Source of the DNA: a virus
Lineage: Duplodnaviria; Caudoviricetes
Virus record (IMG/VR): IMGVR_UViG_3300033412_000476
Span: 23,268-87,267 of that record
Direction: 5' to 3' (one strand)
Length of the DNA stretch: 64,000 nt
A program made the translations under genes and the position numbers. This document shows positions 903 to 64,000 of the stretch, piece after piece. A model generated the notes under the pieces. That model had not been told where the DNA came from. It ran no database searches and saw only the letters and a program-made list of their open reading frames with translations. Numbering within the stretch: position 1 is the stretch's first letter; each line of letters opens with the position of its first letter.

Positions 903-905
903 CGA

Positions 906-2101: not shown

Positions 2102-2114
2102 CGATTGTTGCTCC

Positions 2115-2438: not shown

Positions 2439-2441
2439 CCT

Positions 2442-2822
2442 TTATTCGCCCTCCGAGTGCAGCAACTTGGTCAGCATCACCTTTTGCGCTGCGATGATCG
2501 CGTCGAGCAGCGCCGGCATAAGCGCAAGTGCGTGAACGCGGGTCTTGCGCGGGGCTTTGAGTAGTGGCGTTGTCGCGCTGTTCGCGCCGCCGCGCGTCAC
2601 GACGAGACACCAGGTACTTTCTGCTTTACCGAACCCGACGCGGTACCGTTCTCCGCCTAGATCGAGCGGGACATCGGCACTGAGACCGACGCCAGCCGTG
2701 CGCAGTGCATCCTCGAACTCCTCGAGCCGTTCGTTGACATCCTCTGAGAGATCGTTGATCTCGTCCGCATTCGACTTGATCGTCGCGAGTCTCCGCGCGA
2801 TGTCGGGATCGGCAATATGCAT
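2442..2822 (-). CDS. hypothetical protein, N-terminal coiled coil
   Basis: Likely start MHIADP at 2822; helical acidic N-terminus. Confidence 0.55.
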   Translation of the reverse strand: MHIADPDIARRLATIKSNADEINDLSEDVNERLEEFEDALRTAGVGLSADVPLDLGGERYRVGFGKAESTWCLVVTRGGANSATTPLLKAPRKTRVHALALMPALLDAIIAAQKVMLTKLLHSEGE

Positions 2823-2974
2823 TTGTCTCACGCTCCCTTGCGAGGACTCGAGGCTGACGCACGGTCGGTTGACGATGGCACGGAGCAAGCGCGGACCGCG
2901 GTTCATAACTCCGCGGAGGCAAACCACACTCGCTCTCTAATAGCCGGCCTTCCGTGCGTCAGCCTCCAACCCTC

Positions 2975-3755
2975 TCACTCCGAAATCAGTTTGTAGCGCA
3001 AGGTGAACCCTCGCACCGAAGCTTCAGATCTGCGCGCGGCGACGCTGCCATCTTCGAACACACGCGCGATGATCACAACGCGCTCACGCACCTTCGAATG
3101 CTTGCGGAACGGTCGACTTTCCAGCGCGAGCACCTTCACACGTCGTCCGTTGTCGCGAGCGTCAAGCGATTCCCAAATCTGGTTGACGGCGACGGCCATC
3201 ACTCGCCCTTGCACATGCGGACGAGCCGCAACGTCGGGTGTTCACCGTCATTGCGCGTATGTGGCAGCGCGAACGCGATCCGCTCGCCGGCAGCAATCGC
3301 CGCCGCGCAGAGCAGTGCGCTGAGCTCGGGATCGACCGCGTTGTGATGCACGAGCGCGCCCCACCGCTCCGCCGCGAGCAGCGCCGTCAGCGCTGAACGC
3401 AGCGAATGCGCCTCGAGCGCGACGAGCAGCCCCTCTGCCTGGAAGTGCTCGGGCAGCGCGCCCGGCAGAAGCCGGTAGTGCATCGCTCGCGGGCTGCGCA
3501 GCTGGTGCGGTGCGATGACCGGCTGGATTGCGATCCACAGCTTCTCGGTGAGCAGCTTCATCACAGGTCTCGCGAGTCGTCACGCAAGAGCACGACGTAG
3601 CCGTCCCGGTCGACGTTGACGCCGCTGCAAGGACCCTGGCAGTCGCAGCCCTCAGTCAGCACGAACGCGTCGGGCGTCGTTTCCTGCAACTTCTGTAGCT
3701 GCGCGATCAGATCACCGAGCCGAATCGGTTTGAGCCTGGGTTTGTCGGTAGCCAT
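2975..3755 (-). CDS. three small coupled hypothetical genes (2975..3199, 3199..3564, 3561..3755)
   Basis: Overlapping stop/start codons, same strand. Confidence 0.5.
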
Positions 3756-4471
3756 CACAGAAATCCCTTCGGTGGGTACACCTTGCCAAGAGCGTCGAAG
3801 CCGTGGTGTTTCTCCGCGATCGAGTCTAGATGGCGCCCGAGGTCGCGCCCGTAGCGCTCGGCGCGCTCGCTACGAATCGAACGCGCGATCGCTGCCCCGA
3901 GGTTGGGCTCGCGCGCAGGCGCGGCAGCAGCCTCCGCGCGACCGTTGCACGCTGGGTAGCGGCTGCAGCCCTTGAAGGGGCCGCTGCGCCCGGTGCGCTC
4001 GACCTGGGGTGCGCCGCAGGCCGGGCAGCGGGGGCCGACCGTGGCGGCCTTGAACGCCTCACGGATTACGCCGGTGAGTCGCTCGAGGAAAGCGGCCTGG
4101 CGCTGCGCTTCTCCGCCCGCAGGCGCCGTCCGGAAGACGCGGACCGCCTGACAGAGCGGCTTGAATCCGAAGCCGTCCAAGCGGCGGTAGGCGCCTGCCG
4201 CGAGCGGTGCCGGCAAGGGCGCCGTATCAGCGATGACGCCCCAGAAGATGCGGATTGCGTCGGCGCCACAGTCGCGCAGCTGCGCGTCGGTTGAAATCGA
4301 CGTAAAGACGCGCACTTCGGTGCGCCTGCGCGCTGGCCGCAGCAGGGCCACAATCTCGTTTCCGCTGCTGCAGAGTAGGTAGCCCCCGCCCGACTGCTTG
4401 ACGGCCGCGCCGATATTGTCGAGCGCGCCAAGCAGCGCCGCGGGCGGCACGTTGTAGAAGCGCGGGCTCAT
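3755..4471 (-). CDS. protein with C-terminal topoisomerase-type C4 zinc ribbon
   Basis: CPACGAPQVERTGRSGPFKGCSRYPAC matches the zf-C4_Topoisom pattern; start MSPRFY at 4471. Confidence 0.7.
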   Translation of the reverse strand: MSPRFYNVPPAALLGALDNIGAAVKQSGGGYLLCSSGNEIVALLRPARRRTEVRVFTSISTDAQLRDCGADAIRIFWGVIADTAPLPAPLAAGAYRRLDGFGFKPLCQAVRVFRTAPAGGEAQRQAAFLERLTGVIREAFKAATVGPRCPACGAPQVERTGRSGPFKGCSRYPACNGRAEAAAAPAREPNLGAAIARSIRSERAERYGRDLGRHLDSIAEKHHGFDALGKVYPPKGFL

Positions 4472-4620
4472 GACCGCGAACCGCGCTTGTAGATACTTGC
4501 GCTCGCGGCGAGTCCGCACACAACGCCCAAGGCAACGGCGCCCGGCGTGCCGAGATGCCACGCCGCCGTCAGCACGAACGCCGCCGCGCAGGCGATCACG
4601 AGAGGTAGATATCGAAGCAC
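4468..4620 (-). CDS. 50-aa membrane protein
   Basis: Not in the ORF track; GTG start after GGAGAG RBS gives MLRYLPLVIACAAAFVLTAAWHLGTPGAVALGVVCGLAASASIYKRGSRS. Confidence 0.55.
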   Translation of the reverse strand: MLRYLPLVIACAAAFVLTAAWHLGTPGAVALGVVCGLAASASIYKRGSRS

Positions 4621-4636
4621 GTTGCTCTCCTACAGG

Positions 4637-4693
4637 GCTCGGGTTCCAGCCGAGCGTCGCACAACCAGACGTTGCCTCAACCGGGCATATTCT
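4637..4693 (-). promoter_or_regulatory. early cassette: AGAAT-N17-CGTCTGG plus GGAA-loop hairpin (variant copy)
   Basis: Reverse strand: gaatatgcccggttgaggcaacgtctgg...gctcggCTGGAACccgagc. Confidence 0.55.
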
Positions 4694-5183
4694 TCAAGAC
4701 CGGTCGCACGATGAAGCCGTACGCGTCGAGCGCTGCAGCTTCACTCGCGGTCACACGGAAGACTTCGCCTGCGCGCAGCTGGGCAACGATCCACATCGCG
4801 GGCTCAATGCCGAGCCCGCTGCAAACCCGCAGCAGTGTCGCGACGTAAGCTTCGTGTTGCTCGCGGTCGAGCGGCAGCGCGACGACCTCCCAAGTGCACT
4901 CGATTACCGGCGGGCGTTTCGCAAACCAGCGCCCGAGCTCCGCTGCACTCGGCTGCCTGGGATTTGTCGTGAGGGCGATGAGCCGCTCGCGGGCTTCCGC
5001 TTCTAGCGCGCGGTTCTTCTCGTCGAGCGCTTCTAGCAGCGCATCCGCGCACGCGACCGCGGTACGTTCAACGCTGTCGTCTGCTGAGCCCGTCGCGTGA
5101 CCCAAGATGTATGGTTGCCGCACCGTCGGATCCTCGAGCAGTAGCTTGAAGATCTCGAGCGCGAAGCGTTCACGTGTTTCCAT
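4677..5183 (-). CDS. hypothetical protein
   Basis: METRERF start at 5183 after GGAAGG. Confidence 0.55.
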   Translation of the reverse strand: METRERFALEIFKLLLEDPTVRQPYILGHATGSADDSVERTAVACADALLEALDEKNRALEAEARERLIALTTNPRQPSAAELGRWFAKRPPVIECTWEVVALPLDREQHEAYVATLLRVCSGLGIEPAMWIVAQLRAGEVFRVTASEAAALDAYGFIVRPVLKNMPG

Positions 5184-5190
5184 CAGAGCG

Positions 5191-5583
5191 CTACCTTCCT
5201 GGTTCCATGCGAGCATAGTAGTGGCCATCGGGGAGAATCGAGACCAGGCGAATCAGACATGCACGAGACAGGATGCGCGCGGTCCTGATCTGTTGACCTC
5301 GTACCGGCGCAGATGCTTTCGGATCAGCCGGCAACGACTGAAGTAACGCCGTCTGTGCAGGCGTGAGCCTAGGCGCTGTACCGCGCGAACGCCGCGCGCT
5401 GTACTGCGGGCTTTGACCCCGCAGCTTGTTGGCGAGCGCGCGGGCTGCGCCGAGCGTCAAGCCCCCGCGGACGTGCAGTGCGCCGATGACGTCGTCGTGG
5501 CTCAGCGACTCGAGCGCGGCGAGTATCGCGCCAACGTCCTTTCGATTCAGTGGGATCACTTCGTTGGGTGTTTGCGAGCTCAC
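5191..5583 (-). CDS. hypothetical protein, possible C-terminal winged-helix
   Basis: GTG at 5583 overlaps helicase stop; LTPAQTALLQSL...RILSRACLI pattern. Confidence 0.4.
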   Translation of the reverse strand: MSSQTPNEVIPLNRKDVGAILAALESLSHDDVIGALHVRGGLTLGAARALANKLRGQSPQYSARRSRGTAPRLTPAQTALLQSLPADPKASAPVRGQQIRTARILSRACLIRLVSILPDGHYYARMEPGR

Positions 5584-7133
5584 TTCACGTCCCCGTCGAG
5601 CCACACCAGCTCATGCTTGGCGCGCGTGATGGCGACGTAGCGGATGTTCTCTTCTTCGGTGCCTTCACGCCAGGTCGTGGTCTCGCCGCGGCTCTTGCAG
5701 AAGGTCGCCGAGAGCAGCCACACGCGGCCAGCCTCGAGCCCCTTGGCGCGGTGGACGGTCGACAGCATGATCACGCTGCTGACGTCGTCGCCGGTGAAGA
5801 GCGTGTCAAAGCGCGCGTACAGCTCCGCGAAGCTGTAGATGCCCTCGACCAAGGCCGTGATGACCGCGCGGTTGTCTCCTGCGATCTCGATGGCGGTCTC
5901 GCCGGTGCTCGGGTCGATCTCGCCGCGCTCGACGCGCTTGTTGATGACTCGGATCTCAGCGTCGAGCTGTCGGTCGAGCTCCGCGAGCAACCCATCGATG
6001 TTGCGCACGCCCGAGCGCTCCACACTCTCGACCTGCTTGCGCAAGCCTTGGCTGAGGTCACGGCCGCGGATGCGCGCGGCCTTGCCGTTCTTGAGCAGCG
6101 TGAGCGCTGCAGGCACGAGCGGGGCGTTGGTACGGCTGAGCACGAAATCGCCCGGACCAGCTTCGCGCACGAGCGTGTCGCGTACGTCGAGTGCGTGGCG
6201 CACGATGCCGACCGGCGCGGTCGCCGCTGCAACGAAGTCGAGGACCAACTTCACAGCCTCGGCCACGACTGCTTGCGGGCAGCGATAGGTGGTCTTCAGG
6301 CCCAGCTCGACAGCTTGGAGCGAGCCCTTCATGCGATCGAGTGCGCTCGCGTCCGCCCCGCGCCAGCTGTAGAGACACTGCCTGTCGTCGCCGATCACGC
6401 ACACTCGGCCCTCCGGCCGCGTCGCCTTGGTTGCCAGCTCGAGCTGTGCCGCGGACATGTCCTGCGCTTCGTCAACGCACACGAGGTCATAGCGGCCGAA
6501 CACCATCCCGTGCACGAGCGGCAGGAAGATCATGTCCGAGAAGTCGATCGTGTCGGTCCGGTCGGCGGCGATCTCGGCAGCATCGAGCGCCCACTGCGCG
6601 ACTGCGCCGTCAGTCCAGCCCCGATCTTCGTCGAAGTCCTCGCTCGGCAGCAGGTGACCGTAATCGAACGCCATCTGCGTGACGGTGTCCCATGCGCCGT
6701 CGTCAGCGTACGCGCGGCCCTTGTCGGTGTCCCAGTACACCAGGTGTGGCTTGATCTCGCGGATCTTGGTGCACAGCTCGGCAACGCAGCGCAGGACCGA
6801 CTGAGGGGCGTTCTTGGGCACTACGGCCTTGGCCAAGGACCACTTGCGGCGGTTGTCGACGTTGAGCTTGGGCCACGCGCGCCGCAGGTACGAGAACCCC
6901 AGGCCGTGCAGCGTCTTAGCCTCGGCGCGCGGGTTGGTCAGCCGCGACTGCAGCTCATCGGCGATGATCTTGTTGAACGCCGCGAGCAAGATCCGGCGCT
7001 CGGGCGCACGCGAAATCCCCTCGATGATCGTCGTCGTCTTGCCCGTGCCAGCGCGAGCGCGAATCACCAGGTTGCCCTTGCCCTCGGCAAACCAGCGGAA
7101 GATGTCGTTTTGCTCGGGGCTCCAAGTCTTCAC
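5580..7133 (-). CDS. superfamily 1 UvrD/Rep-like helicase
   Basis: Walker A ARAGTGKTT, VDEAQD, GDDRQCLYSWRGA, TYRCP, STVHRAKGLEA, YVAITRAK; likely GTG start at 7133 after GAGGGAG. Confidence 0.92.
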   Translation of the reverse strand: MKTWSPEQNDIFRWFAEGKGNLVIRARAGTGKTTTIIEGISRAPERRILLAAFNKIIADELQSRLTNPRAEAKTLHGLGFSYLRRAWPKLNVDNRRKWSLAKAVVPKNAPQSVLRCVAELCTKIREIKPHLVYWDTDKGRAYADDGAWDTVTQMAFDYGHLLPSEDFDEDRGWTDGAVAQWALDAAEIAADRTDTIDFSDMIFLPLVHGMVFGRYDLVCVDEAQDMSAAQLELATKATRPEGRVCVIGDDRQCLYSWRGADASALDRMKGSLQAVELGLKTTYRCPQAVVAEAVKLVLDFVAAATAPVGIVRHALDVRDTLVREAGPGDFVLSRTNAPLVPAALTLLKNGKAARIRGRDLSQGLRKQVESVERSGVRNIDGLLAELDRQLDAEIRVINKRVERGEIDPSTGETAIEIAGDNRAVITALVEGIYSFAELYARFDTLFTGDDVSSVIMLSTVHRAKGLEAGRVWLLSATFCKSRGETTTWREGTEEENIRYVAITRAKHELVWLDGDVK

Positions 7134-7183
7134 GGCTGCATACTCCCTCTGTTCAGGCTGCGGTGCCTGTTGCGTTGCCCTTC

Positions 7184-7212
7184 TTAGACGAATCCTCGCC
7201 ACGGCTATTCAC
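7184..7212 (-). promoter_or_regulatory. early cassette promoter GTGAAT-N16-CGTCTAA upstream of helicase
   Basis: Exact motif copy, no hairpin. Confidence 0.65.
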
Positions 7213-7218
7213 TCGCTT

Positions 7219-7751
7219 TCACGGAAGCAGACAGTAGCTTGCGCGGCCGACGGCGATCGCGAGCGTTGCACCGTAGAAGTCGCGGCCGTCATCGCCGACG
7301 CGCACGACCCACACCCATTCGAGCGCGACCCCGAGCGGTTCGAGCGCGACAGCCTTGTGCTGCTCTCGCGAGATCGAGACTGTGTGATACGCCTGCGCCA
7401 AGCGCTCGATCTCAGCCTGCACTTCGGCGGCGCGGTGCAGCGTCTTCACGGCAACGCTCGGAAGGTCGACCCGACCAGTGGCACGGCGATGTGTTCGCCG
7501 CGTGACTCGAGTGACCAGTCCGGATAGAGCGCCACGCAGCCGGGCTCGGGCTCGAACGCGACGCTACCGATTGCCGCCCCGCGCTCAGCTCGACGCTGCA
7601 GCGCGTCGATTCGAGCCTGCGCAATGTCGGCCCGCTTGCGCGGCGAAAGGTGCGCTGTGCTGTTACCGATCTCGCCGCCGCGCCCTTGGATCGGCCCGAC
7701 CAGCACACGACCATCCGCCAACTTCACGCGAAACCGCACTACGCCTTCCAT
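7219..7751 (-). CDS. two small hypothetical genes (7219..7449, 7446..7751)
   Basis: Coupled ORFs; RBS AGGAGG before ATG 7751. Confidence 0.5.
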
Positions 7752-7776
7752 TCCGATCCTCCTACAGCTCGCCCGC

Positions 7777-7804
7777 TTAGACGAAAACTGTTTTCGGCGA
7801 TTCA
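7777..7804 (-). promoter_or_regulatory. early cassette promoter TGAAT-N16-CGTCTAA
   Basis: Exact motif; TGA of the motif is the stop of 7802..7993. Confidence 0.65.
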
Positions 7805-7998
7805 ACGCTCCGCGGCGTCGACCTCCAAGATCGTGAAGACCACCGCGCGCAGCCGAGCGTATGTCAGCTCGTCGCCCGGCTTGGATGCACGCGCACCCAT
7901 TCGGAAGAGCCGACCGAGCGCCATCCGCATCAACACGGCGCGCTCGTCCTTGCTCAGCGAGGCGATCGCCTCCGCTTCTGCAGGTAGGCTCATGATCT

Positions 7999-8388
7999 TC
8001 AGGCCCCCCAGATCAAGCCGTCGTCACCCACATACAGGTGATACTCGTGGAACGCTTTGCATGCATCGGTGAGCGTTGTTGCGGCGGGCTCCGACCAATC
8101 GCCATCCCAGAACCCCGCGCCGTGGCCGTTGCGCGTCAGCCAAAAGTCGTGGCCGGCTTGCTCGTCCTCAGAGTGCTCGCTCACGCGGGCCCACTGACCG
8201 GACCACGTCGAGCGCTGCGCTTCGAAGAAGGCTTTGCAGTCCGCTTCGAGCTTCGCGCGAGTCTCGGGCGCGAGATCTTCCGGGCCGTAGTTGTCGTCGA
8301 TCGGATCGCCGCCGTCGTCGCGACTCTCGTCGTTGCTCGACCACAGGGCGCACGTGATGTACGCCCGCGTGAAGTCCGCGAGGCTCAC
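7999..8388 (-). CDS. conserved phage/plasmid hypothetical protein
   Basis: FTRAYITCALWSS and AGHDFWLTRNGHGAGFWD motifs recalled from a widespread MGE family. Confidence 0.65.
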   Translation of the reverse strand: MSLADFTRAYITCALWSSNDESRDDGGDPIDDNYGPEDLAPETRAKLEADCKAFFEAQRSTWSGQWARVSEHSEDEQAGHDFWLTRNGHGAGFWDGDWSEPAATTLTDACKAFHEYHLYVGDDGLIWGA

Positions 8389-8618
8389 AACGACACCTCG
8401 CGGTCAAAGGTGACCTGCAGGTTGAACACGCCGTGCACGTCGTGCCGCAGGGGCACGAGCGCGTAGATCCGCTGCGCACGTAGCGCGAAGCTGCACCGGT
8501 GCACGACCATGTCCGGGCTGCGTCGGCAGCTCTTCAGCAGCCCTTGCGCCGCTGCGCGATCGATCGGCTTGCCGTTCCAGGGCAAGCCCGTGCCAAAGAG
8601 AACGTATTGATAGCCCAC
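8385..8618 (-). CDS. hypothetical protein
   Basis: GTG at 8618 after cassette hairpin and AGGAG. Confidence 0.5.
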   Translation of the reverse strand: MGYQYVLFGTGLPWNGKPIDRAAAQGLLKSCRRSPDMVVHRCSFALRAQRIYALVPLRHDVHGVFNLQVTFDREVSL

Positions 8619-8633
8619 GTTGCTTGTCTCCTG

Positions 8634-8688
8634 CCCCGGGTTCCAGCCGGGGTTGCATCTTAGACGTTGTCTGCTTGCTCTGCATTCA
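8634..8688 (-). promoter_or_regulatory. early cassette TGAAT-N17-CGTCTAA plus hairpin ccccggCTGGAACccgggg
   Basis: Direct reading of reverse strand. Confidence 0.7.
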
Positions 8689-9835
8689 TCCATTCGAGCA
8701 GCGAAACATGCCGATCGACGATCTTCACAGTGAAGGTGTGACCCGTCCGCGCAAGCGACACGCACAGCGCCGAGAAGTCCGTATCGGTGTGGTGCGCATG
8801 CACGTACGGCTCACCCTTCGCGATACGCGCCGAGCCAAGGCGTGCGTTGTGACCACAGCGCAAGCGCACCACCTCGACAACTACGGCGCTCACGGTGCCT
8901 CGACTGCGCGCACGTCTGCGACGTCGTAGTTGACCTCGCAGCCCGCGAAAACGCCGGAGTCGATCTTCAGGACCGCGAGCACCCCGCGGCCATAGTCGTG
9001 ATACCGCACGAATGTGTAGCCTTTGAACCAGTCCGCGCAGCGGTAGGCCCACAGCGTGCGCACTTCGACCGGCGCACCGGGTTTCAGATCGAGTTGCGTG
9101 TTCATCGCGACACCGCGTCTGCAGGCACGTAGGCGTAGCGGTGTGCGAGGTCGTGGCGACCGAACGAGTCCGGGCCGGCGTTCCACTCAGGCAGGAACCG
9201 CTCGGGGTTCCTGACGGCATACAGCGGCTTGCCCATGCCGTCGGGGACGACGTCCAGCTCGGTCCCCGCGGGGACGTCGATCACCGTCGAGCGCGTGATC
9301 GTGAGCCGTAGTGCTCGGTTGGTGACTGGCATGTTCCTACCTCAGCCCTTTCCAGTGTTGGATCTGAAGATCTTTTGCGTACCGCTCGGTATCGGCGACA
9401 CTCACCCAATGCCAGGGTGCGCCCGCACAGAGTCGAAACTGCAGCGCGACACCTAGCTCAACGCCAACACGTGCGTCTGTGTTCAGCACGTCGCGCAGAG
9501 CTTGCATTGCGCCGAGCAACGTTCGATGTGGTCGGCTGCTAGCGGGCCAGCCTCTGGGGTTGTCAGCGTGCACGGGGCCGCCGTCGCTTACGTATCTGAT
9601 CCGCCAAGTGCCCACGGTGCTACCTCACGCCCGGCGGGAAGATCTCGGCGAACGCTTCCGCCTCGTCGTCGAAGTTGAAGTGACCCCATTCGCAGCGCGC
9701 TTTGCGGACAACCGCTGCGCGGTCAGCACCCTTGATCGTGCTGTACGGGCAGCGCGCAACCCAGGTGCCGTCAGGCGCTTGCGTCAAGCTGTAGTTGGTG
9801 CGGATGTACCGCTGCCGTTCGTTCGGCGTTGACAC
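8660..9835 (-). CDS. five small hypothetical genes (8660..8893, 8890..9105, 9102..9332, 9337..9615, 9620..9835)
   Basis: Contiguous co-oriented short ORFs with overlapping stop/start codons. Confidence 0.5.
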
Positions 9836-9849
9836 GTTGCCTCCGTTCT

Positions 9850-9903
9850 CGCGGGTTCCGCCGCGTTGTGCTGATTAGACGTTGCTCGTGCTCGAGGGAT
9901 TCA
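9850..9903 (-). promoter_or_regulatory. early cassette TGAAT-N17-CGTCTAA plus hairpin cgcggCGGAACccgcg
   Basis: Direct reading of reverse strand. Confidence 0.7.
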
Positions 9904-10500
9904 CCCGACCGGGGCAGAAATCGCCCCGCACGCACGTCTGCGTGACTGCGGAGAGCACCGATCCACAGCGTGAGCACGCGCCGATCGTCGGCGCAGTGCG
10001 GCCCGACGCTGCGCTCGCGATCTTCGCAAGCAGTGCTCGCCCGGCTTCCGTTGCGGTCGCGTACGGATAGGCGACTGTCACCAGATCCTTGCGTGCCAGC
10101 TCATAGCAGGCTCCGCCGTTGGTTGCTTCGTGGCACCCATGCGGTCGAGCGGCCGCGAGTAGCGTGTCGTACAGGCGCCAACTGAGGGCCTTGCAGCCGT
10201 TGTCCCGGGCTGCTGTCCACGTGCGTTTGGCTTGGGCGCGGTTCATGGTTCTTCACCACAGCGGCGAAGCACGTCACAGTAGTAGGCGTCAAGCGTCCCG
10301 CAGTGGAGTCGACCCGACTCCATGTTCAGCAAACCCCGCGCTGCGCGGCACAAGTCAGCCAGGTAGTCCGCGGCGTACTCGTCCGCAGCCCACTGCGCAG
10401 CGGCCGTAACGATCGCTCTGTGCAGCTGCACATGTGCTCGCTCGGGACCGCGGGGTGACGCCATCGCGGCGTCGTGCCGAGTCTTCTCGTCCGTGCTCAC
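9875..10500 (-). CDS. two hypothetical genes (9875..10246, 10243..10500)
   Basis: Coupled ORFs; first ends at the TAA of CGTCTAA. Confidence 0.5.
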
Positions 10501-10516
10501 GTTGACCTTCCGTTCT

Positions 10517-10572
10517 GCGCGGGTTTCCGCCGCGCGTGCCTGGTTAGACGAAAACTGTTTGCGAGGTATTCA
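10517..10572 (-). promoter_or_regulatory. early cassette TGAAT-N17-CGTCTAA plus hairpin gcgcggCGGAAACccgcgc
   Basis: Direct reading of reverse strand. Confidence 0.7.
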
Positions 10573-11465
10573 GTCGTTCCAAGGCCGACGATCGGCGCCG
10601 TCGGAGTCTTTGAGTGTGCACAGCGCGCACGGGTTAGGGCCTGGCCTGCCGCAGTCGCACGCGACCTCACGCCGCGACAACTCGAGCCCGTCGAACGTTG
10701 CCGCACACTGAGCCACGCGAGCGGGGTTGAGCACGCGCAGCGCGTCGCCTTCCGCCGACGACTCTGCGGCGCGCGTGCGGAGCACGAGGCTGCGAAACTC
10801 GCGGTAGTCCTCGGGTGACTGCGCAGTGACGTCCACGAGCCAGCCCTTGCGAAGCGTGATCATGTCGCCACCTCCCCGATCACTTCGCCCGAGATACCAT
10901 CGAAAAGCAGGAACGACCGCGCGGTATTGCCCAGCTTTTCAGCCGCCCACACACGCGCTTCCGCGATGCTGGCGAAGCAGCCCCGGGTCAAGGTCGCGAA
11001 CGGTCCCGTTGACTCTGTGGGGTGCCATTCGGTGCGACCCTCGATCGTGAACGGAATGCAAACCGTCCAGTAGCGGTCGAACACTAGCGAGCCGTCGACG
11101 TCGACCTTTCGGCCAACCACTGACGCCAGATCACCCATAGCCACAAGCACCCTCCGTCGGCCTGCCATCTTCAGTGCGCGTAGGCCAGATCGCGCAGACC
11201 CCAAGTCGGGGTTTCGGCTTCAGTCGATCGTCAGATCGTACAGGTGCTGGACGCCACCGTCGGAGTAGTCGACGCCCCACAGCAAGCGCGCCGCACCGGG
11301 GTCACGCTTGGGGCTGAGCCCTACCGCGATCGTCTCGCCCGACTCGCAGCTGACGTCGGAAGCCAGCTCGCGCGCTGCAGCTTCGATGGCCTGCGGGTTC
11401 GCTTCGCCATGCAGCTGCCGAGCATGGCAGTCGCCAAACCGATCCTTGATCACCACACAACCCAT
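10570..11465 (-). CDS. three hypothetical genes (10570..10863, 10860..~11138, 11220..11465)
   Basis: Co-oriented ORFs between cassettes. Confidence 0.5.
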
Positions 11466-11481
11466 GACGCATCGCTCCTTT

Positions 11482-11532
11482 GCGCGGGTTCCGCCGCGCG
11501 CTTGTTAGACGGGCTTGCGCCCGAGAGATTCA
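11482..11532 (-). promoter_or_regulatory. early cassette TGAAT-N16-CGTCTAA plus hairpin gcgcggCGGAACccgcgc
   Basis: Direct reading of reverse strand. Confidence 0.7.
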
Positions 11533-11886
11533 CTTCGCCGCGTACTTCGCCCAACGGCGAGCGCGCTTGATGCGGTACTGCGCGCGGACATCGGCGATCG
11601 CCTCGTCACGCGTAGCGCCGAGCCCGGTCGCAACGAGGTTTCCGCCGCGGTACAGCTCAGCGTGCCGGTAGCCCCCGGGCATACCCGGGGTGTAGGGGTC
11701 CTCGCGCACCTGAAAGCGCTGGCCAAAGCCGTCCAGCTCGCGAAGCTTCGCCTTGTCTTCGCTGTAGGTCGCCGCCGCGCGCAACCAGCGGACCGTCGCA
11801 GAGGTGCCGCACAGCGCGGTCACTTCGCCGATGTCGTGCTCCGCACTACCGGGCCGACCCGACGCAACCATGGACCCTACACGCAT
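11530..11886 (-). CDS. first gene of leftward arm, hypothetical
   Basis: ATG 11886 after AGGAGG. Confidence 0.6.
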   Translation of the reverse strand: MRVGSMVASGRPGSAEHDIGEVTALCGTSATVRWLRAAATYSEDKAKLRELDGFGQRFQVREDPYTPGMPGGYRHAELYRGGNLVATGLGATRDEAIADVRAQYRIKRARRWAKYAAK

Positions 11887-11903
11887 TCGCCGTACCTCCT
11901 GCC

Positions 11904-11957
11904 GGGGGTTTCCGCCCCGTTCGCCCATTTAGACGGGGGCCCCCGGGGGCGTATTCA
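11904..11957 (-). promoter_or_regulatory. leftward early cassette TGAAT-N17-CGTCTAA plus hairpin ggggCGGAAACcccc
   Basis: Direct reading of reverse strand. Confidence 0.7.
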
Positions 11958-11962
11958 AAGGC

Positions 11963-11988
11963 TGTCAAAAAATAGCTCTTTTTTGACA
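11963..11988. repeat. inverted repeat TGTCAAAAAA-N6-TTTTTTGACA (operator-like)
   Basis: Perfect 10-bp arms in the AT-rich divergent region. Confidence 0.8.
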
Positions 11989-12011
11989 AAAAGCCTGCGT
12001 ATTACTATAGT
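11983..12011 (+). promoter_or_regulatory. sigma70-type promoter TTGACA-N17-TATAGT
   Basis: TTGACA 11983-11988 and TATAGT 12006-12011; the -10 lies within the perfect 18-bp palindrome GTATTACTATAGTAATAC (11999-12016). Confidence 0.75.
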
Positions 12012-12035
12012 AATACACGCTTTTCTTTGGGCATG

Positions 12036-12089
12036 GTGAATACGGCCCGAAAACCGCCGTCTAATAGGGCGAACGCGGCGGAAACCGCG
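12036..12089 (+). promoter_or_regulatory. rightward early cassette GTGAAT-N16-CGTCTAA plus hairpin cgcggCGGAAAccgcg
   Basis: Direct reading. Confidence 0.7.
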
Positions 12090-12129
12090 GAAGAACCCCC
12101 GGGATGGATCCGGGGCTGAAGGAGGGCTT

Positions 12130-12627
12130 ATGGCACTGCATTTCAAGGGTGAACGGGGCGTCCAGTACGCCGGGCGCGTGCTGCGCGACCGCTACGTGAG
12201 TGACGTTCGGATCATGAGTGACGTTTGGGCTGGACAGTACATGCTCGATTGCGTCGAGCCCGATGGATCGATCACGTCGATCGCGTACATGACGGAAGGC
12301 TTTGGCGGGAACCCGGGGCTGGAGTCGTGGGAGATCGACGCCACCCCGGAAGCGATCGCGCAGCACGAAGCTTGGCTCGCGGCGCGCGAGGCTGAGCGCG
12401 TCGAGCTGGAAGCGCGCCGCGCTCGCGCGATCGCCGCAGCTGAGGCTAAGGCGGTTCGCAAGGGCCGGCGCTGCAAGGTTGTGCGCGGTCGCAAGGTGCC
12501 CAAGGGCACGGAAGGCGTGTGCATCTGGGTTGGCGACGGTCACTACGGCGAGCGTTGCGGCATCAAGGACGACTCCGGAACCGTCCACTGGACCGCGAGC
12601 AAGAACGTCGAAGCGATCGCCCCGTGA
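12130..12627 (+). CDS. first gene of rightward arm; hypothetical with C-terminal SH3/KOW-like region
   Basis: GRRCKVVRGRKVPKGTEGVCIWVG motif recalled from phage proteins; GGAGG RBS. Confidence 0.6.
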   Translation: MALHFKGERGVQYAGRVLRDRYVSDVRIMSDVWAGQYMLDCVEPDGSITSIAYMTEGFGGNPGLESWEIDATPEAIAQHEAWLAAREAERVELEARRARAIAAAEAKAVRKGRRCKVVRGRKVPKGTEGVCIWVGDGHYGERCGIKDDSGTVHWTASKNVEAIAP

Positions 12628-12740
12628 TCGCTAGCGCGTGAGCCCCCTGCGGGGCTCCGCATCCCTCGCAGCGCAAGCGCCCGACGTTGGCGCGGCGAGG
12701 GATGCGCCGGCCGGAACACCGGCGCTAGGAGGCTAGGAAC

Positions 12741-13955
12741 GTGGATCAACATGATCTCCCGCGGAGCTTTGGCCGACGTACGGCCGGTGTAGCTAACGCA
12801 CGTGCAGCAGCACAACGGCTGATCGCCGATGCGACCGCGCTGGACGGCGGTGCGATCGACCGCGCGAAGTATCTGCTAGAGCTTCGCCCCGCAACGCTGG
12901 CCAAAGCCTGCGGGATCACTACGGCTGATCTGCAAGCACTGCTCTGCGAAGCCCGTGAGCAGTACCACACCGCTGAGCACGCGCGACCTGTGCGCGCCAG
13001 TGTCAGCATGATCCGTCGGCGTGTCGAGTTTCGCGTAGCGCTCGCGCTCGCGAAAGAGATCGTAGTGAATACCGGCAGCTGAAGCGCCGTCTAAGACAGC
13101 AAACCCGAGAGAAGGAAGAACATGGCAAAGTCTACTGTGGACACAGTCCGCGGCGTCCCGTTCGCGGACATGGGCGAAGAAGAGCTTGCGGCGTACGCAC
13201 ACGGCGCTGCGCAGTCGAGCGATGAAGGCTATAACCAAGCCGTCGCACGCGCGGCACGCAAGGAAATCGCCAAGCGCGCCAAGCGCGCCAACGATCTGAC
13301 CGAGTACGCGGTCGACGGCTTCAACGGTGCTGAGTGCAGATTGCTCTACTCGTCGGCGGCATGGTTTGCGTTCCAGCTCGGGGTTTACCTCAAAGCGACC
13401 GGGCGCTCGACCCCGCGCGACGTTCGCATGGGTCGTGGGTACTCGGTGCGCTGCGCCGACATGCTCTTCAAGCACGTGGACGGCGCGACGTTCGAACGCG
13501 TGCAGTGAATACCGGCGGCTGAAGTTTCGTCTAACCACAAACCGCGCGGCGGAACCCGCGCATCGTTAGGAGAGGTCATGGAGCAACTCAGCTTGGGGAT
13601 GCTGACGTGCGACGCGCACGAGGCATCGGCACCTTACGAGTCGGATCGTTGGGCGAGCACCGATCGCGGCTGGCTGTACGACCCTGCGCACCCTAATGCG
13701 GACTACCACGGCGGCAACCTGCCGATCGGCAACTATCTCGATTACGGGCCGTGCGGAGAGCACTACCGCAACAACCCCGACGGCGCCGTGCACGTGTGCT
13801 TCACGCCGTGGTGGATCGACCCCGTGACGCGGTCGATCTGCCGCGGAGTGACAGAGAGCACGCACGTGCACACCCCTGCAGAGGCGCAAGCCTGGCTCGC
13901 CGAGCAGTACCGCCTGTGGACGGCGCGGCGTGCCGCAGACAAGGTGACGCCGTGA
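12741..13955 (+). CDS. three hypothetical genes (12741..13082, 13122..13508, 13578..13955)
   Basis: Each has a purine-rich RBS and follows a cassette or hairpin element. Confidence 0.6.
13065..13094 (+). promoter_or_regulatory. early cassette promoter GTGAAT-N17-CGTCTAA
   Basis: gtgaataccggcagctgaagcgccgtctaa. Confidence 0.7.
13505..13561 (+). promoter_or_regulatory. early cassette GTGAAT-N17-CGTCTAA plus hairpin gcgcggCGGAACccgcgc
   Basis: gtgaataccggcggctgaagtttcgtctaa; near-identical to the 13065 and 14419 copies. Confidence 0.7.
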
Positions 13956-14422
13956 AAAACTACTTGGACAAACTGATTGTACGGCGCGAGCGGAGCCTCG
14001 TGTGCGAGTCGGACGGGCCGCTCGGCCGCAAGATCACGCACAGCGGCGACATCGCGAAGATCGCGATCCCGCTGATTGGGCCTGAGGCTGTCGAAGTGTT
14101 CGTGATCTTCGCGCTGACCGCGCGACACAAGGTCACGGGCTACCACGAAGTGGCGCGTGGCTCGCTAAGCAGCTGCGCAGTCAGCCCCGGGGACGTCGCG
14201 CGCGTCGCGTTGATCGCGGGCACGCCGGCCTTCATCGTGGCCCACAACCACCCTAGCGGCGAGCCTGAGCCCAGCCCCGAGGACATCGCGCTCACGCGGA
14301 AGATCAAGCAGGCTTTCGACCTGCTCGGACTGACCCTGCTCGATCACGTGATCGTCACGAGCGAGCACCACAAGAGCTTGCTCGATATGGGCCTGCTCGA
14401 CGTTTCCGTGAAACCGGCGTGA
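13952..14422 (+). CDS. stand-alone RadC-like JAB/MPN+ domain protein
   Basis: EVFVIFAL...HNHPSGEPEPSPED...LLDHVIV with intact H-x-H...S-x-x-D; GTG start at 13952. Confidence 0.88.
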   Translation: MKNYLDKLIVRRERSLVCESDGPLGRKITHSGDIAKIAIPLIGPEAVEVFVIFALTARHKVTGYHEVARGSLSSCAVSPGDVARVALIAGTPAFIVAHNHPSGEPEPSPEDIALTRKIKQAFDLLGLTLLDHVIVTSEHHKSLLDMGLLDVSVKPA

Positions 14423-14482
14423 ATACCGGCAGCTGAAGTTTCGTCTAAGAGGCACAAGCAAGCGGCGCGGCTGGACCCGCGC
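14419..14482 (+). promoter_or_regulatory. early cassette GTGAAT-N17-CGTCTAA plus hairpin gcgcggCTGGACccgcgc
   Basis: gtgaataccggcagctgaagtttcgtctaa. Confidence 0.7.
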
Positions 14483-14499
14483 AAGGATGGGAGAGCAAC

Positions 14500-15072
14500 A
14501 TGGCAACGGACATCATGGCTTGGTGGAAGCTGCACTTGCCGCCGCACCTGCGCGAGACGGCGCCCGAGCGGCCCGAGGGAACCGACCTCGCGATCTGGCG
14601 CGAGGAGATCGACGGCAATCCGTTCGCGTACGGCTTCCAAGGCAAAGCGCGTCAGCCCGTGTGGGCCTATCGCTTCAAGGACGCCGCGCACCGTGAGCGG
14701 TTCATCGGTGAGAAGATCGCCGCACGTAGGGCGCACTTCGGTCGCAAGGCTGAGCGCGCAGCGGAACGCAAGCAGGCGACGCACAGCCTCACGGTGGGTG
14801 ACATCTTGTCCTCGAGCTGGGGCTACGACCAGACCAACGTCGATTTCTACGAGGTGGTCGCCGTCCCTAGCTCCAAGTCGGTAATCATCCGGAAGATCGC
14901 CAGTCAGGCGGCCGCTCGCGACCGCGTCGCGCCGCAGCCCGGGGTGTTCATCGAGGGCCCCATGCTCAAGCGCGTGACCGCCCACGGCTCCGTGAAGATC
15001 GAGGATTACGCCTGGGCCAGCAAGTGGTCCGGAGCTCCGATGTACCAGACCGACATCCACGAGGGTCACTGA
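14500..15072 (+). CDS. conserved MGE hypothetical protein
   Basis: GDILSSSWGYDQTNVDFYEV motif recalled from a widespread phage/plasmid family. Confidence 0.65.
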   Translation: MATDIMAWWKLHLPPHLRETAPERPEGTDLAIWREEIDGNPFAYGFQGKARQPVWAYRFKDAAHRERFIGEKIAARRAHFGRKAERAAERKQATHSLTVGDILSSSWGYDQTNVDFYEVVAVPSSKSVIIRKIASQAAARDRVAPQPGVFIEGPMLKRVTAHGSVKIEDYAWASKWSGAPMYQTDIHEGH

Positions 15073-15087
15073 GCTTTGCGCCTGCGT

Positions 15088-15141
15088 TGAATACCTGAAA
15101 ACTGTTTTCGTCTAAGCTGACGGCTCGGCTGGAACCCGAGC
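15088..15141 (+). promoter_or_regulatory. early cassette TGAAT-N16-CGTCTAA plus hairpin gctcggCTGGAACccgagc
   Basis: Direct reading. Confidence 0.7.
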
Positions 15142-15157
15142 AGAAGGGAGAATCAAC

Positions 15158-18100
15158 GTGCAACTCGACATCGAATACGTGCTCGCGGGCGAGCCGGAAG
15201 ACTGCGACCCAGCAGATCACTTCGACGACAGCGACGAAGGCGACGCCGACGTCACATGGGTTCATGAGCAACTCAGCGCCGGCAACCAGTGGGCCTGGTT
15301 TCGCGCGGTCGTCACCGCCCGCGTTACACTCGACGGCCAAACGTTCGAAGGCGTCGACTCGCTCGGGTGCTGCTCGTACAAGTCGGAGGACGACTTTCGA
15401 CAGTGCCAGTACTTCGACGACATGAAGACTGAGGCGCGCTACGCCTTGCTCGCGTCACTGCACACCGCCGTCCGTAGGGGCGAGCTTGCCGCGGTCGCGC
15501 TGACCCAGGTGACGCCATGATCTACGGACGATTTGGCGACGCAGTCACGATCGTGCGCATGGGCACGCTCGACGACGTCAAGACGATCGACGGCCGCAAG
15601 CCCGACAAGCAGGACCGCGAGGCTGTCGAGATCGGTAGCTACGTCGTAGTCCGCCAGGACAACGGCAAAGAGCGGCTCTACCACCTTGCGTTCCTGCGCG
15701 CCGACGGCGGCAGCAAAGAGATCAACGAGGCAATCGCCGCCTGCGACCCCTGGAGCCAGCCATGAAGGGTCTACGCCGGCTGAAGCAGCCGCAGATCGAG
15801 TACATCGGCCGCGGGCCTCGTGTGGTCGCGCTGAGCGCAGCGAGCGCGCTCTACTTCTTCGGCTTCGACAGCGAAAACTATGAAGCTGTCGACGTCGGTC
15901 CGCCGGCTGATCCGCACCGCTGGAAGCCGGAAGCTCGCGTGTACGAGTGCCGCAAGAAGCAATCGAAGATGAACTGAGCCTCGAGCTGGAACCTCGAGCA
16001 TCAACAGGGAGAAACGAACGTGAGTATGAACAGACCCAGCGTCACCGTACGTAACAACAACGTCCCCGGTGCGGCGGCTGACGGTGAGACGATCGTCGAG
16101 TTTAGCTTTCAGGACAGCACTGGCGGGCTGATCTCGTTCAGCATCGACGCGGAAGGCAACCCGCGCGTGGAGCTCTACCGCTGCGACGAAGGCATCCGCG
16201 TAGGACTCGACAATCTGACTGACCACAAAGGCGGCAAGCTGATCGCCGCGAGCGACATGTCGCTAGCCCGGATCGGAATCACCAAGTGAGCACCCACGAT
16301 CCCGAGCTGCTGTTCATCGCGCACTACCCGCCGGGCCCGGTGCGCACGTTCGCCGCGCGGCTGCTCAACGAGGTGGGCTGCGCGGTGCAGACCGAAGACT
16401 ACATCGCAGGCGTCGCCGAGTGCTGCGGCTGCAGCACCGCCGACCGCGAGCGCGTGATCACGCGCGCCATCGATTGCGGCTTTCTGCGCGCTGACGCGCT
16501 GCAGTGGGCGCCCCGAGGCAAACCCCGCTACATCCCTTGCCTGTTCGCGGTGCAGCCATGAGTTTCACCATGAAGGCGATCGCCATCGAGATGCGCAAGC
16601 GCGTCGCCACGCGGCGCAAGCCTACACTGGACGCGCTACGCGCGATGTCGCTACAGCAGATCGATCAGCTTCTCACGGAGTGCGCGGTCAAGGTTGTTCG
16701 CCTGCATACGTCGAAGTCGACGCCGCTGCGTTCGTACGCCTGCAAGCTCCGGCGGTTCGACGGCTCAACAGTCGAGCGCTTCGCAACGACAGCCGGACAG
16801 GCACTTCTCGACGCGCTCGACAGCGCAACAGACGCCGGCTGGTTCGGCGATCACTACGAGCAACGAAACCAACTACAGGAGACAGCGCAAGATGAGTGAG
16901 AGAACCGACAGAGCCCGCGTGGTTGCGGGCGCAATCAAAGCCAAGGTCGCTGCCTACGAGAACGGCGAGTGCGACAACGGCGCGCTCGACGTTGCCACCA
17001 ACGCGATCGCCATGCTCGGCCAGCTGGCCGACGCGGTGCTCACGCTCGCCGAAGAGCACGATCATCTCGAGCGCACGCTCGCCTCACGCACGGATCACCT
17101 CGCGTGACCAAACCCCTGAACGAGATACTTCAAACGAAGATCCTCGAGCAACGCTCCGGCGCGCTGCTGCGCGCGTACGAGCTGATGCAGGAGACTGCGA
17201 AGCAGATGCCTCCGGCTGCGCGCAAGCTGGCCGATCGCGCGCTCCTCGAGCTCGAGGCGTTCGGCCAGAGTCTCGAGCGTGAGTACCGCTCAAGGGGACT
17301 GTAGCGATGACGCTCGAGGAGATCATCGCAGCGATCGGCCGGCACATGTTCTCGCGAACGCAGCTGAACCGCGAAGTCTCCGCACGCGTGCACCTACACA
17401 ACGACGTGCTCATCGGCAGTCTGTACCGCGACGTGCTCACTGACGAGATCACGCTGCTAGTTCAACTCGGCCAAGCTTGGTGCTACGGCTGGCAGCCCGA
17501 GGAAGCCCGCGCAACGTACTACCTGTCGCGGTTCACCAGGAGCCTGCGGCCATGAAGAACAGAAACCGTTTCAGGACCATCCACCGGAAAGCAACGATGC
17601 CCGCGCCCAAGAACGTGATCTTCGCCCCAACGAGCGTGCACATCTATCCGGACAGTCAACGGGGGCAGGTTGCCTTCGAGCTGCGCAACAAGGCTAATAA
17701 GCCGCTGATGACGCTGCTACTCGAACCTGAGGGCGCCGCGAATCTGTTTGCGAAGCTCGGAGAGGCCCTCGTCGCGATCACCGGTACCGCGGACCACTGG
17801 CGTCGCGGCGCTGTCGAGCCGCAGAAGACGCAAGCGCGCTGCACATGCCCTTGCCCTGACGATCCCGACAAGCCGTCGACCGATCCGACCGCGCACTACA
17901 TCGGTTGTCCGTTTCGCGCAGAGCTCGAGGCGCAGACCGAGTGAAGATCAGAGTCAAGACGCCGCGACGGCTGCCGCCCAAGGCAGAAGCGATCGATTAC
18001 CCAGAGATCATTTCGCAGATCAATCGGGAGCTGGAGCACCACGGCCTGAGCGCGCTCGACTTGCTCAGCAGCTTCGCGCTGCATCTGTTGGGCGTCGCGC

Positions 18101-18255
18101 TGGACGTCACCCCGCAGCACCCCGTCAGCCAACAAAAGGTCTATAGAGACCTGCACTTAGAGATCAGCCGCATGGTCGGAGAGGCGCTCGACCGCAAGCA
18201 GCGTCTACTCGGATCTCCGCTGGGCAACCAGTCGCTACCGAAGGAGCGAGACTAG
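15158..18255 (+). CDS. run of ~11 small hypothetical genes (15158..15520, 15517..15765, 15762..15977, 16020..16289, 16286..16561, 16558..16899, 16892..17107, 17104..17304, 17307..17555, 17552..17944, 17941..18255)
   Basis: Nearly all linked by ATGA/GTGA stop-start overlaps; hairpin ctcgagCTGGAACctcgag at 15980-15998. Confidence 0.6.
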
Positions 18256-18283
18256 GAGCACGCGCGCGAAAATAGATTTCGGC

Positions 18284-18337
18284 TGAATCTTGTCGTAACG
18301 TCGGCGTCGCAGTTCAACCCTCGGCTGGAACCCGAGG
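18284..18337 (+). promoter_or_regulatory. early cassette variant TGAAT-N16-CGTCGCA plus hairpin cctcggCTGGAACccgagg
   Basis: Direct reading; precedes the RecA-like gene. Confidence 0.55.
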
Positions 18338-18358
18338 CGCACCAAGGAGAAAAACAAC

Positions 18359-19150
18359 GTGGCAGATTTCATTTCAACAGGGGTCTTGTCCCTCGATTGC
18401 GCGCTCGGTGGCGGCTACCCGAAGAACGGCATCGCCGAGATCTACGGCGAGATGGGCGCGGGGCGGCTGACGCTCGCGCTGCATGCGATCGCAGAGTGCC
18501 AGCTGCAGCCCGACGGCGTCACGTTCATGTTCGCGCACGGCGATCAGATCGCGCCCTTCGACGCAGTCTACGGCATGCGGCTAGGCGTCGACCCTCAGCG
18601 GTTTCTGCACTTCGAGCAGCGCAAGCTCGAGTTGCTTTTTCGCTGCCTGCGCAGCGCCGTCACCGGCAGTCATCCGCCCGACCTCGTGATCGTCGACCTC
18701 CGCCGCGGCATCGCGCGACTGTCGGCCGAAGAAGGCAGTGAGCTGGTCGCCCGGCTCTCGCTCTTTCTGCGCGAGCACTGCTCTCACAAGCAGCGCACGA
18801 GCTTGCTCTTTCTCAGCGACGGCAAGCTGCAGCCGCTGCAGTTTCACGCGCAGCAGCGCATCCTGCTGCAGTTCGACCGCGTCGCGCCCAACGACGACAC
18901 GCTCGTGCACGCGAACATCGTCAAAAACCGGCTCGGCGAGCCGTACAAGCAGCTGAGCCTGCAGCTGACGCCCGGCGACGGCGTCGATCTGATCGCGGAC
19001 ATCGTGCGGACGGCCGCCTACGCCGGTGTGCTGCCACACCAGAACGTCGAGGCGCTGTGCGTAGAGCTCCGCCGCGACAACCACGCCCGCGAGGCGCTCT
19101 GCCGTACCGTGCGCAGCAAGATGCTCTTTGGCGCGAGCGTTGCGCAGTGA
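18359..19150 (+). CDS. degenerate RecA-like protein, predicted ATPase-inactive
   Basis: ISTGVLSLDCALGGGYP..IAEIYG, LGVD, DLVIVD and VKNRLGEPYK follow RecA order, but Walker A reads GEMGAGRL. Confidence 0.85.
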   Translation: MADFISTGVLSLDCALGGGYPKNGIAEIYGEMGAGRLTLALHAIAECQLQPDGVTFMFAHGDQIAPFDAVYGMRLGVDPQRFLHFEQRKLELLFRCLRSAVTGSHPPDLVIVDLRRGIARLSAEEGSELVARLSLFLREHCSHKQRTSLLFLSDGKLQPLQFHAQQRILLQFDRVAPNDDTLVHANIVKNRLGEPYKQLSLQLTPGDGVDLIADIVRTAAYAGVLPHQNVEALCVELRRDNHAREALCRTVRSKMLFGASVAQ

Positions 19151-63987: not shown

Positions 63988-64000
63988 CCATCGACGGCCT

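Follow-up and report, generated by a model that had tools for sequence, protein, structure and literature searches.

The window analysed here, 64,000 nucleotides at bases 23268-87267 of the 87,267-bp IMG/VR virus contig IMGVR_UViG_3300033412_000476, holds between its positions 4618 and 18361 two divergent arms of genes into which fourteen cassettes are set, each built around a two-box promoter-like motif (TGAAT-N16/17-CGTCTAA or a degenerate form of it) and most of them carrying a conserved hairpin in the leader that follows. Unprefixed positions are those of the window, while positions labelled as genome or G000:C1 are those of the whole contig. The genome has a guanine-plus-cytosine (GC) content of 64%, and its first and last 200 bases (G000:C1:1-200 and 87068-87267, the latter being window 63801-64000) are the same except for one mismatch. 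Because an open reading frame (ORF) for a 590-amino-acid SNF2-type helicase also continues across the junction of this terminal repeat, the record, classed as linear and 66% complete, is probably a complete genome of about 87,067 bp, either circular or terminally redundant.

The motif is present in the window in 12 exact copies, where none is expected (none in 100 dinucleotide shuffles). The minus strand carries seven (starting at 7184, 7777, 8660, 9875, 10544, 11505 and 11929, and together spanning 7184-11957) and the plus strand five (12037, 13066, 13506, 14420 and 15088, spanning 12037-15115), and every copy is directed away from the 79-bp interval 11958-12036. An array of this kind, diverging from a common centre, had been proposed from the letters of the window alone (hereafter the original prediction), and both the array and its orientation are borne out; most of the proposed start positions were likewise right, the first four of the plus-strand copies having been placed one base too low. 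Extending the search to the whole 87,267-bp genome yields no exact copy beyond the 12. Twelve of the 13 genomic CGTCTAA heptamers fall inside the motif, the 7-mers most enriched upstream of all genes are fragments of the cassette, and a de novo search upstream of all genes returned no second over-represented promoter-like motif. With a two-block weight matrix derived from the 12 sites, these score 24-37 bits and everything else below 15, the next-best site (14.8; genome 9593-9621) preceding an operon of lipoprotein-like, ribbon-helix-helix (RHH)-like and sigma factor genes to which we return below. Two degenerate variants, AGAAT-N17-CGTCTGG at 4665-4693 (minus strand) and TGAAT-N16-CGTCGCA at 18284-18311 (plus strand), are unremarkable on the motif alone, as about 1.8 two-mismatch matches are expected by chance; we count them as real members because they share with the exact copies the downstream leader hairpin, the ribosome-binding site and the CAACGTG start context.

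The leftward arm runs on the minus strand. Outward from the centre, its innermost cassette (11884-11957) combines an exact promoter motif at 11929-11957 with a hairpin at 11903-11919 and an ATG at 11886, and is followed by cassettes at 11463-11532 (exact motif 11505-11532, hairpin 11482-11499, ATG 11465), 10498-10572 (exact motif 10544-10572, hairpin 10517-10535 with loop CGGAAAC, GTG 10500), 9833-9903 (exact motif 9875-9903, hairpin 9850-9865 with loop CGGAAC, GTG 9835) and 8616-8688 (exact motif 8660-8688, hairpin 8634-8652 with loop CTGGAAC, GTG 8618). Further out, the exact motif at 7777-7804 (cassette 7749-7804) is separated from its ATG at 7751 by a 25-nt leader without a hairpin, that at 7184-7211 (cassette 7131-7211) has no canonical hairpin and precedes the GTG at 7133 of a UvrD-type helicase gene, and the outermost, degenerate cassette (4618-4693) has a hairpin at 4637-4655 with loop CTGGAAC, a ribosome-binding site and a GTG at 4620. 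On the plus strand, the innermost rightward cassette (12037-12132) carries an exact motif at 12037-12064, a hairpin at 12074-12089 with loop CGGAAA, a second hairpin and an ATG at 12130; the next (13066-13124; exact motif 13066-13094) has a 27-nt leader without a hairpin before its ATG at 13122. Those at 13506-13580 (exact motif 13506-13534, hairpin 13544-13561, ATG 13578), 14420-14502 (exact motif 14420-14448, hairpin 14465-14482 with loop CTGGAC, ATG 14500) and 15088-15160 (exact motif 15088-15115, hairpin 15123-15141, GTG 15158) are followed by a promoterless leader module at 15980-16022, directly after the stop of the preceding gene, with a hairpin at 15980-15998 (loop CTGGAAC), a ribosome-binding site and GAAC before the GTG at 16020. 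The arm ends with the degenerate cassette at 18284-18361, in which the motif leads to a hairpin at 18319-18337 and to the GTG at 18359 of a RecA-like gene.

Across all 14 units the end of the motif lies 25-65 nt from the next start on the same strand that is preceded by a ribosome-binding site. With two asymmetric boxes 16 or 17 bp apart, co-oriented with the gene, the sites have the anatomy of promoters of the extracytoplasmic function (ECF) type, which they had been proposed to resemble. CAAC stands before a GTG start in seven units and before the ATG in unit 14420. The units precede ORFans as well as UvrD-like, RadC-like, RecA-like and Dam-like genes, and Pfam and PHROG searches of the small genes in both arms gave almost no matches. 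An upstream stop codon within the motif or its spacer had been claimed for nine cases, and six of these stand: five units (7777, 10544, 11505, 13506 and 14420) have a well-supported upstream ORF that terminates at the TGA of TGAAT, a RadC-like gene in the last of them, and in unit 4665 the stop lies within the spacer. The other three (8660, 9875 and 13066) depend on weak upstream ORFs with a poor codon-position GC signature. The spacer sequence CCGGCAGCTGAAG is common to three units, and so is an AAAAC-N-GTTTT palindrome; such shared spacer sequence suggests duplication or exchange between units. Overall, the spacers are mildly enriched in small palindromes (mean arm 3.7 vs 2.9, P ~0.009).

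The leader hairpin is found in 11 of the 14 units and at the promoterless site, in 12 copies altogether. It has a 5-6-bp GC-rich stem, which starts 5-16 nt past CGTCTAA (median about 8-9), and a loop whose sequence is C(T)GGAA(A)C or differs from this by one base (CTGGAC, CGGAAA). In an alignment of the 12 copies 91.7% of the cells are paired, compared with 70% in column shuffles (0 of 500 as high), five of the six stem pairs show compensatory changes on both sides, and the pairing signal is lost once the 3' arm is shifted by 1-3 columns. The loop reads identically on the coding strand in both arms, and the element is therefore strand-specific and would most simply act as RNA. Predicted folds retain the hairpin, and in the majority of leaders they pair little of the Shine-Dalgarno sequence and the start codon. 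That the loop is conserved and that one copy stands without a promoter may point to a shared binding partner or to a part in processing.

The hairpin was compared with known classes of RNA element. In 4000-19000 no Rfam 15 family matches the hairpins at E values up to 1, and a scan of the whole genome with Rfam returned nothing above a gathering score. GGA is present in every hairpin loop and in every Shine-Dalgarno sequence, 12-20 nt apart, with the loop context being C(T)GGAA and not the ANGGA of CsrA/RsmA sites; a search for a viral CsrA gene found none. The loop's GGAAC was considered as another -35 box and rejected, since its separation from the conserved CGTG ranges from 18 to 21 nt or more. 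A promoter/stem-loop (PeSL) cassette of T4-type phages, to which the units had been likened, matches them in its layout of promoter, stem-loop and ribosome-binding site before ORFans; its terminator role was rejected for the viral hairpin, which lies in the transcribed leader past the -10 box, has no U tract and keeps a conserved loop. A terminator scan lists one of the hairpins, on the opposite strand only, and counts no more terminators than in shuffled sequence. Two 8-bp hairpins with loops CTGGAAC or CGGGAAC also stand within coding sequence, at 8566-8588 (minus strand) and 12298-12320 (plus strand), one of them 30 nt past the start of the gene at 8618. Finally, the stretch that separates two genes of the leftward arm (11156-11219, minus strand) coincides exactly with a candidate type II hammerhead ribozyme; the candidate covers the full model length with CGAAAC, GUC and CUGAAGA intact, scores 31.4 bits against a gathering score of 37 (E 5.6e-5 for the local stretch), and could cleave a polycistronic early RNA.

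Between the two arms lies what appears to be a central switch (11963-12016, plus strand). It contains an inverted pair of TTTTTTGACA boxes at 11963-11988 and, at 11983-12011, a rightward TTGACA-17-TATAGT, which is the sole near-consensus sigma-70 promoter of the genome (at least 10 of 12 positions, in 87 kb); the leftward arm has no sigma-70 promoter. The -35 box of this promoter is one of the two inverted boxes, and its -10 box lies at the centre of a perfect 18-bp palindrome (11999-12016; 78% AT) that is unique and likely an operator. The same box recurs at 56190-56800, an AT-rich non-coding region of ~600 bp (GC about 45-50%) between divergent gene blocks, where three TTTTGACAC boxes are found, two of them followed by a shared TTTCCATAAC; these may be a regulator-binding set or a replication origin.

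No sigma gene is found in the 64-kb window, as had been stated from the start, and a search of the viral genome for an ECF sigma gives exactly one gene, outside it. A six-frame search with Sigma70_r4_2 yields a single match above the cut-off (genome 10984-11091), within a gene at G000:C1:10651-11163, 12 kb upstream of the window, for a 170-amino-acid protein whose ORF is called in the public data (P0001) and which is the sole sigma-70-family gene product of the genome. P0001 aligns full-length to TIGR02937 (E about 1e-8) and scores 25.3-27.2 bits on PF08281, where the cut-off is 25.7. A full HMMER search finds 62 relatives among 1.8 billion protein representatives, almost all of 160-190 amino acids, and among 21 aligned family members TIGR02937 matches 21 (best E 2e-20), Sigma70_r4 18 and Sigma70_r2 six, about half of the 21 also matching SigB/F/G or FliA/WhiG models. 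In a profile search against the PDB, sigma factors make up all but one of the 60 matches listed, with WhiG the best among them and with Mycobacterium tuberculosis SigE and Rhodobacter sphaeroides RpoE aligned full-length. The AlphaFold model of P0001 (predicted local distance difference test score 88.8) features two helical domains with a disordered linker (residues 85-91) between them, and its top Foldseek matches are ECF sigmas, namely M. tuberculosis SigE, SigL and SigH, Escherichia coli sigma-E, AlgU and SigW, the best of them coming from holoenzyme or anti-sigma complexes and aligning structurally over the full length. The model, the structural alignments and TIGR02937 agree on sigma2 and sigma4 domains only, with neither sigma1.1 nor sigma3. 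On this predicted architecture P0001 is an ECF-like two-domain factor of the sigma-70 family that we place in no named ECF group. A search for a T7-type RNA polymerase gave no match, but its control was also silent and the result is hence uninformative.

The sigma gene lies 5 nt downstream of the RHH-like gene (weak matches only), and the pair lies downstream of a lipoprotein-like gene that heads the operon. No anti-sigma domain was found among the neighbours of the sigma gene; downstream of it is a doubtful ORF of ~70 amino acids with two membrane helices and no clear start. The next-best weight-matrix site mentioned above, TGAATAGG...CGTCAAG, lies 15 nt before the lipoprotein gene, and we regard it as a plausible, predicted weak autoregulatory site. 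A sigma-70-type TTGACG-18-TAGTAT, matching 9 of 12 positions at genome 10307-10336, ends 9 nt before the RHH start, a spacing that implies a nearly leaderless mRNA. Two sigma-70-like promoters of the form TTGACC-18-GATACT, ~80% alike, stand before neighbouring genes at 46795-46824 and 47180-47209 (minus strand); one of them has an ATG 7 nt past its -10 box, leaderless like the promoter before the RHH and sigma genes, and the spacer of one of them holds the 13th genomic CGTCTAA. Promoters of this leaderless type hint at a host that uses leaderless mRNAs.

Searches for relatives place the virus at a distance from known phages. Megablast of the region against phage records found no close DNA relative, the UvrD-type helicase beside the cassette at 7184 has phage matches at ~31-33% identity (33% at most), and tblastn of P0001 against 50,697 phage records found no homologue at E 0.01. 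Relatives of the sigma in IMG/VR, metagenome and genome collections lie on short replication-module fragments of 1.5-31 kb without cassettes; one relative, P0004, is 42% identical and is encoded on an 89-kb contig. Four full-length IMG/VR loci encode helicase relatives (38-42% identity to that of the virus), and the motif is absent from all four loci scanned. No relative with promoter-rich arms was found in phage records, IMG/VR or a metagenome scan, and an IMG/VR scan for the promoter together with the hairpin loop gave 63 single matches, a number consistent with chance. The virus is an uncultured member of an undescribed lineage and has no close cultured phage.

Two other contigs carry similar sites. 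IMGVR_UViG_3300037310_000059, one of the matches of that scan, has at bases 384-460 a single site, TGAATAAA...TTCGTCTAA, and after it a hairpin of 7 bp whose loop contains CGGAAC, so that the whole strikingly resembles a cassette; this 40-kb contig has no protein in common with the virus by tblastn, and we took the site for chance or convergence and rejected it as a related cassette. IMGVR_UViG_3300030329_006380, an unrelated phage contig of 136 kb and 40% GC, has within bases 1-3100, at the contig end, four co-oriented GAATAA-N15/16-CGTCTAA sites. From at least three of these a leader of ~40 nt runs to a ribosome-binding site and an ATG, and the fourth abuts the end of the contig.

Taken together, these data make it probable that the 12 exact and two degenerate sites form a virus-run delayed-early or middle regulon, read by host core polymerase with the viral ECF-like sigma and primed by two sigma-70-type promoters. 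Such a regulon is the most economical reading because the genome encodes one fitting sigma, has one dominant motif and repeats this motif, in weak form, ahead of the sigma operon, and the presence of a viral sigma gene makes a virus-run programme more parsimonious than the host stress-coupled one that had been considered. If the viral sigma must be made first, the regulon would be delayed-early or middle and not strictly early. The original prediction of an ECF-driven early programme is thus retained in its ECF-like character and revised in its timing if the viral sigma is needed, with a sigma-70 promoter available in the rightward arm only.

In the sequence of events that we propose, the host sigma-70 polymerase would fire the central rightward promoter and also the weaker TTGACG-18-TAGTAT before the RHH-like and sigma genes. 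Newly made viral sigma would then switch on some 14 short transcription units in both arms and boost its own operon via the degenerate copy at its head, and the palindrome that covers the central -10 box would allow a repressor to silence the sigma-70 promoter. If start points follow the pattern of sigma-E, transcripts would begin 5-6 nt past CGTCTAA, which would place the hairpin within the first few nucleotides of the transcript and leave the ribosome-binding site free. The hairpin could thereby act as a 5'-end module that protects the mRNA and presents a common loop to an RNA-binding factor.

Several points weigh against a virus-run regulon or against parts of it. The pairing of sigma and promoter rests on their co-occurrence in one genome, the fragments that encode relatives of the sigma having no promoter-rich arms. 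P0001 falls below curated cut-offs (34 bits on TIGR02937, where 42.9 is required; E 0.02 on PF07638), and its family profile shows a likeness to group-3 sigmas (WhiG, FliA) as well. Ahead of the sigma gene, the sigma-70-like promoter fits 9 of 12 positions only. As for the RNA element, the leader hairpins do not exceed shuffled sequence in stability (z about 0), and the case for them rests on covariation, not on energy. Furthermore, the motif is close enough to the RpoE type for a host sigma to read it, and the low-GC phage contig with four similar sites has no clear homologue of the viral sigma, its sole sigma-like ORF (236 amino acids) being unrelated.

The last two points open the way to a host-driven alternative, in which the promoters are read by a host RpoE/AlgU-type ECF sigma alone, switched on by envelope stress at infection, and the viral sigma serves other promoters or none of these. 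The motif fits the sigma-E consensus in its boxes, its 16/17 spacing and its GTC core (PMC1312014), the low-GC phage contig has an almost identical consensus and yet no viral-sigma homologue that could be recognised, and the genes of both arms look like early host-takeover ORFans, which normally need a form of polymerase already present in the cell. The virus, however, encodes exactly one sigma, of the matching two-domain class, and offers that sigma no alternative promoter-like motif that is over-represented; the degenerate motif at the head of the sigma operon is typical of ECF autoregulation. On balance we regard exclusive use of a host sigma as unlikely.

Slightly less likely in our judgement is a reading that treats each cassette as a fused DNA and RNA module. 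Its promoter would mimic an RpoE promoter, fired by the host stress sigma and later by a viral look-alike escaping the anti-sigma, and its hairpin, a new cis-regulatory RNA at the 5' end of every transcript, would let one RNA-binding protein set the stability or translation of the whole regulon. The same succession of sigmas can be put forward for the promoters by themselves, with a host RpoE-like sigma released by infection firing first and the viral look-alike, evading the host anti-sigma, locking the programme on. All that speaks for a host sigma would serve this scheme too, together with the viral sigma, the degenerate copy before its operon and the lack of any sigma-70 promoter in the leftward arm; yet it is inference throughout, the viral sigma4 appears from our reading of the alignment to have a recognition helix different from that of E. 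coli sigma-E, and no anti-sigma partner was identified, and we consider it distinctly improbable. That the sites are no promoters at all, and instead recombination sites or, in the manner of cluster A mycobacteriophage stoperators, oriented sites bound by a regulator, is very improbable, for although they are asymmetric, lie at gene boundaries, are all oriented with transcription, share spacer sequence within subsets (families D5 and D11) and show the mild palindrome enrichment of the spacers, two different boxes at a fixed distance of 16/17 bp with variable spacers have the geometry of a promoter, a sigma of the fitting class is encoded, and each site stands at a promoter-like distance from a ribosome-binding site and start.

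Two further observations concern genes outside the arms. At 25124-26778, diverged direct repeats (72-196 nt, 61-82% identity) fall inside or between genes on the minus strand in what is presumed to be the virion block, which suggests that these genes are paralogous or have internal repeats. Upstream of the window, at G000:C1:17896-21788, four tandem plus-strand genes of 304-328 amino acids each may form a paralogous family; two of the four were searched against PHROG and gave no match.

That a viral sigma reads its own promoters is an established principle, and the gain here is in breadth and detail, not in kind. For an uncultured virus we obtain a testable gene programme, with one sigma, some 15 predicted promoters, an entry promoter of sigma-70 type with a palindrome resembling an operator, and an RNA leader that units have in common. 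The sigma family is rare (62 of 1.8 billion representatives, none in cultured phages), and a compact pair of sigma and promoter like this one might be put to use as an orthogonal expression switch. The hairpin, with its conserved loop, covarying stem and fixed place at the predicted transcript start, is a candidate new cis-regulatory RNA of which one genome provides 12 natural variants.

Stem-loops at the 5' end of a transcript, such as that of the E. coli ompA leader, protect from 5'-end-dependent decay, and promoter-proximal RNA hairpins recruit factors, as lambda N boxB does. The viral hairpin resembles both in its short GC-rich stem and purine-rich loop of 6-7 nt near the predicted 5' end of the transcript, and in being strand-specific. 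It differs from boxB in that neither a boxA-like partner nor an N-like gene was identified in the virus, and antitermination seems unnecessary because the promoters recur every 0.4-1.2 kb. It differs from an ompA-type stabiliser in its conserved loop, a feature that stabilisation by itself would not require.

The E. coli sigma-E consensus consists of GGAACTT and TCAAA, preferably 16 nt apart, with a 5/6-nt discriminator (PMC1312014). Set against this consensus, the viral boxes are alike in GAAT for GAAC and in CGTCTAA for GGTCAAA, with the same GTC core and the same preferred spacing; a short discriminator is expected in the virus too, and the operon of the sigma itself may be autoregulated. 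The viral -35 core, by contrast, ends in T and not in C, the viral sigma falls outside the RpoE subfamily by every model tested, and no RseA-like anti-sigma was found beside it.

A parallel in strategy is phage phiEco32, for which sigma-70 transcription of early genes followed by use of the phage sigma gp36 on middle and late promoters has been shown experimentally (PMC12276001). In both cases a virus-encoded two-domain factor with sigma2-like and sigma4-like parts redirects host core polymerase to private promoters, as predicted from sequence for the virus described here; both have sigma-70 early promoters and their genomes are of similar size class (77 kb and 87 kb). Homology between the two factors is not detectable by sequence (tblastn), the promoters of gp36 are centred on AATGTA around -11.5 whereas the virus has a full -35/-10 pair of RpoE type, no co-factor like gp79 was identified in the virus, and its timing is inferred.

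The PeSL units of T4-type phages are ~100 bp long and combine a sigma-70-like early promoter, a terminator stem-loop and a Shine-Dalgarno sequence before ORFans (PMC2839356, PMC4122927). Their promoter is sigma-70-like whereas that of the virus is ECF-like, with no viral cassette scoring as sigma-70-like, and their stem-loop is a terminator in contrast to the conserved-loop leader hairpin of the virus. The likeness is one of construction: intergenic units of ~75-95 bp, each with a promoter, a stem-loop and a Shine-Dalgarno sequence, stand before small ORFans in a plastic region, and extra sequence is common to subsets of the units, again suggesting duplication or exchange.

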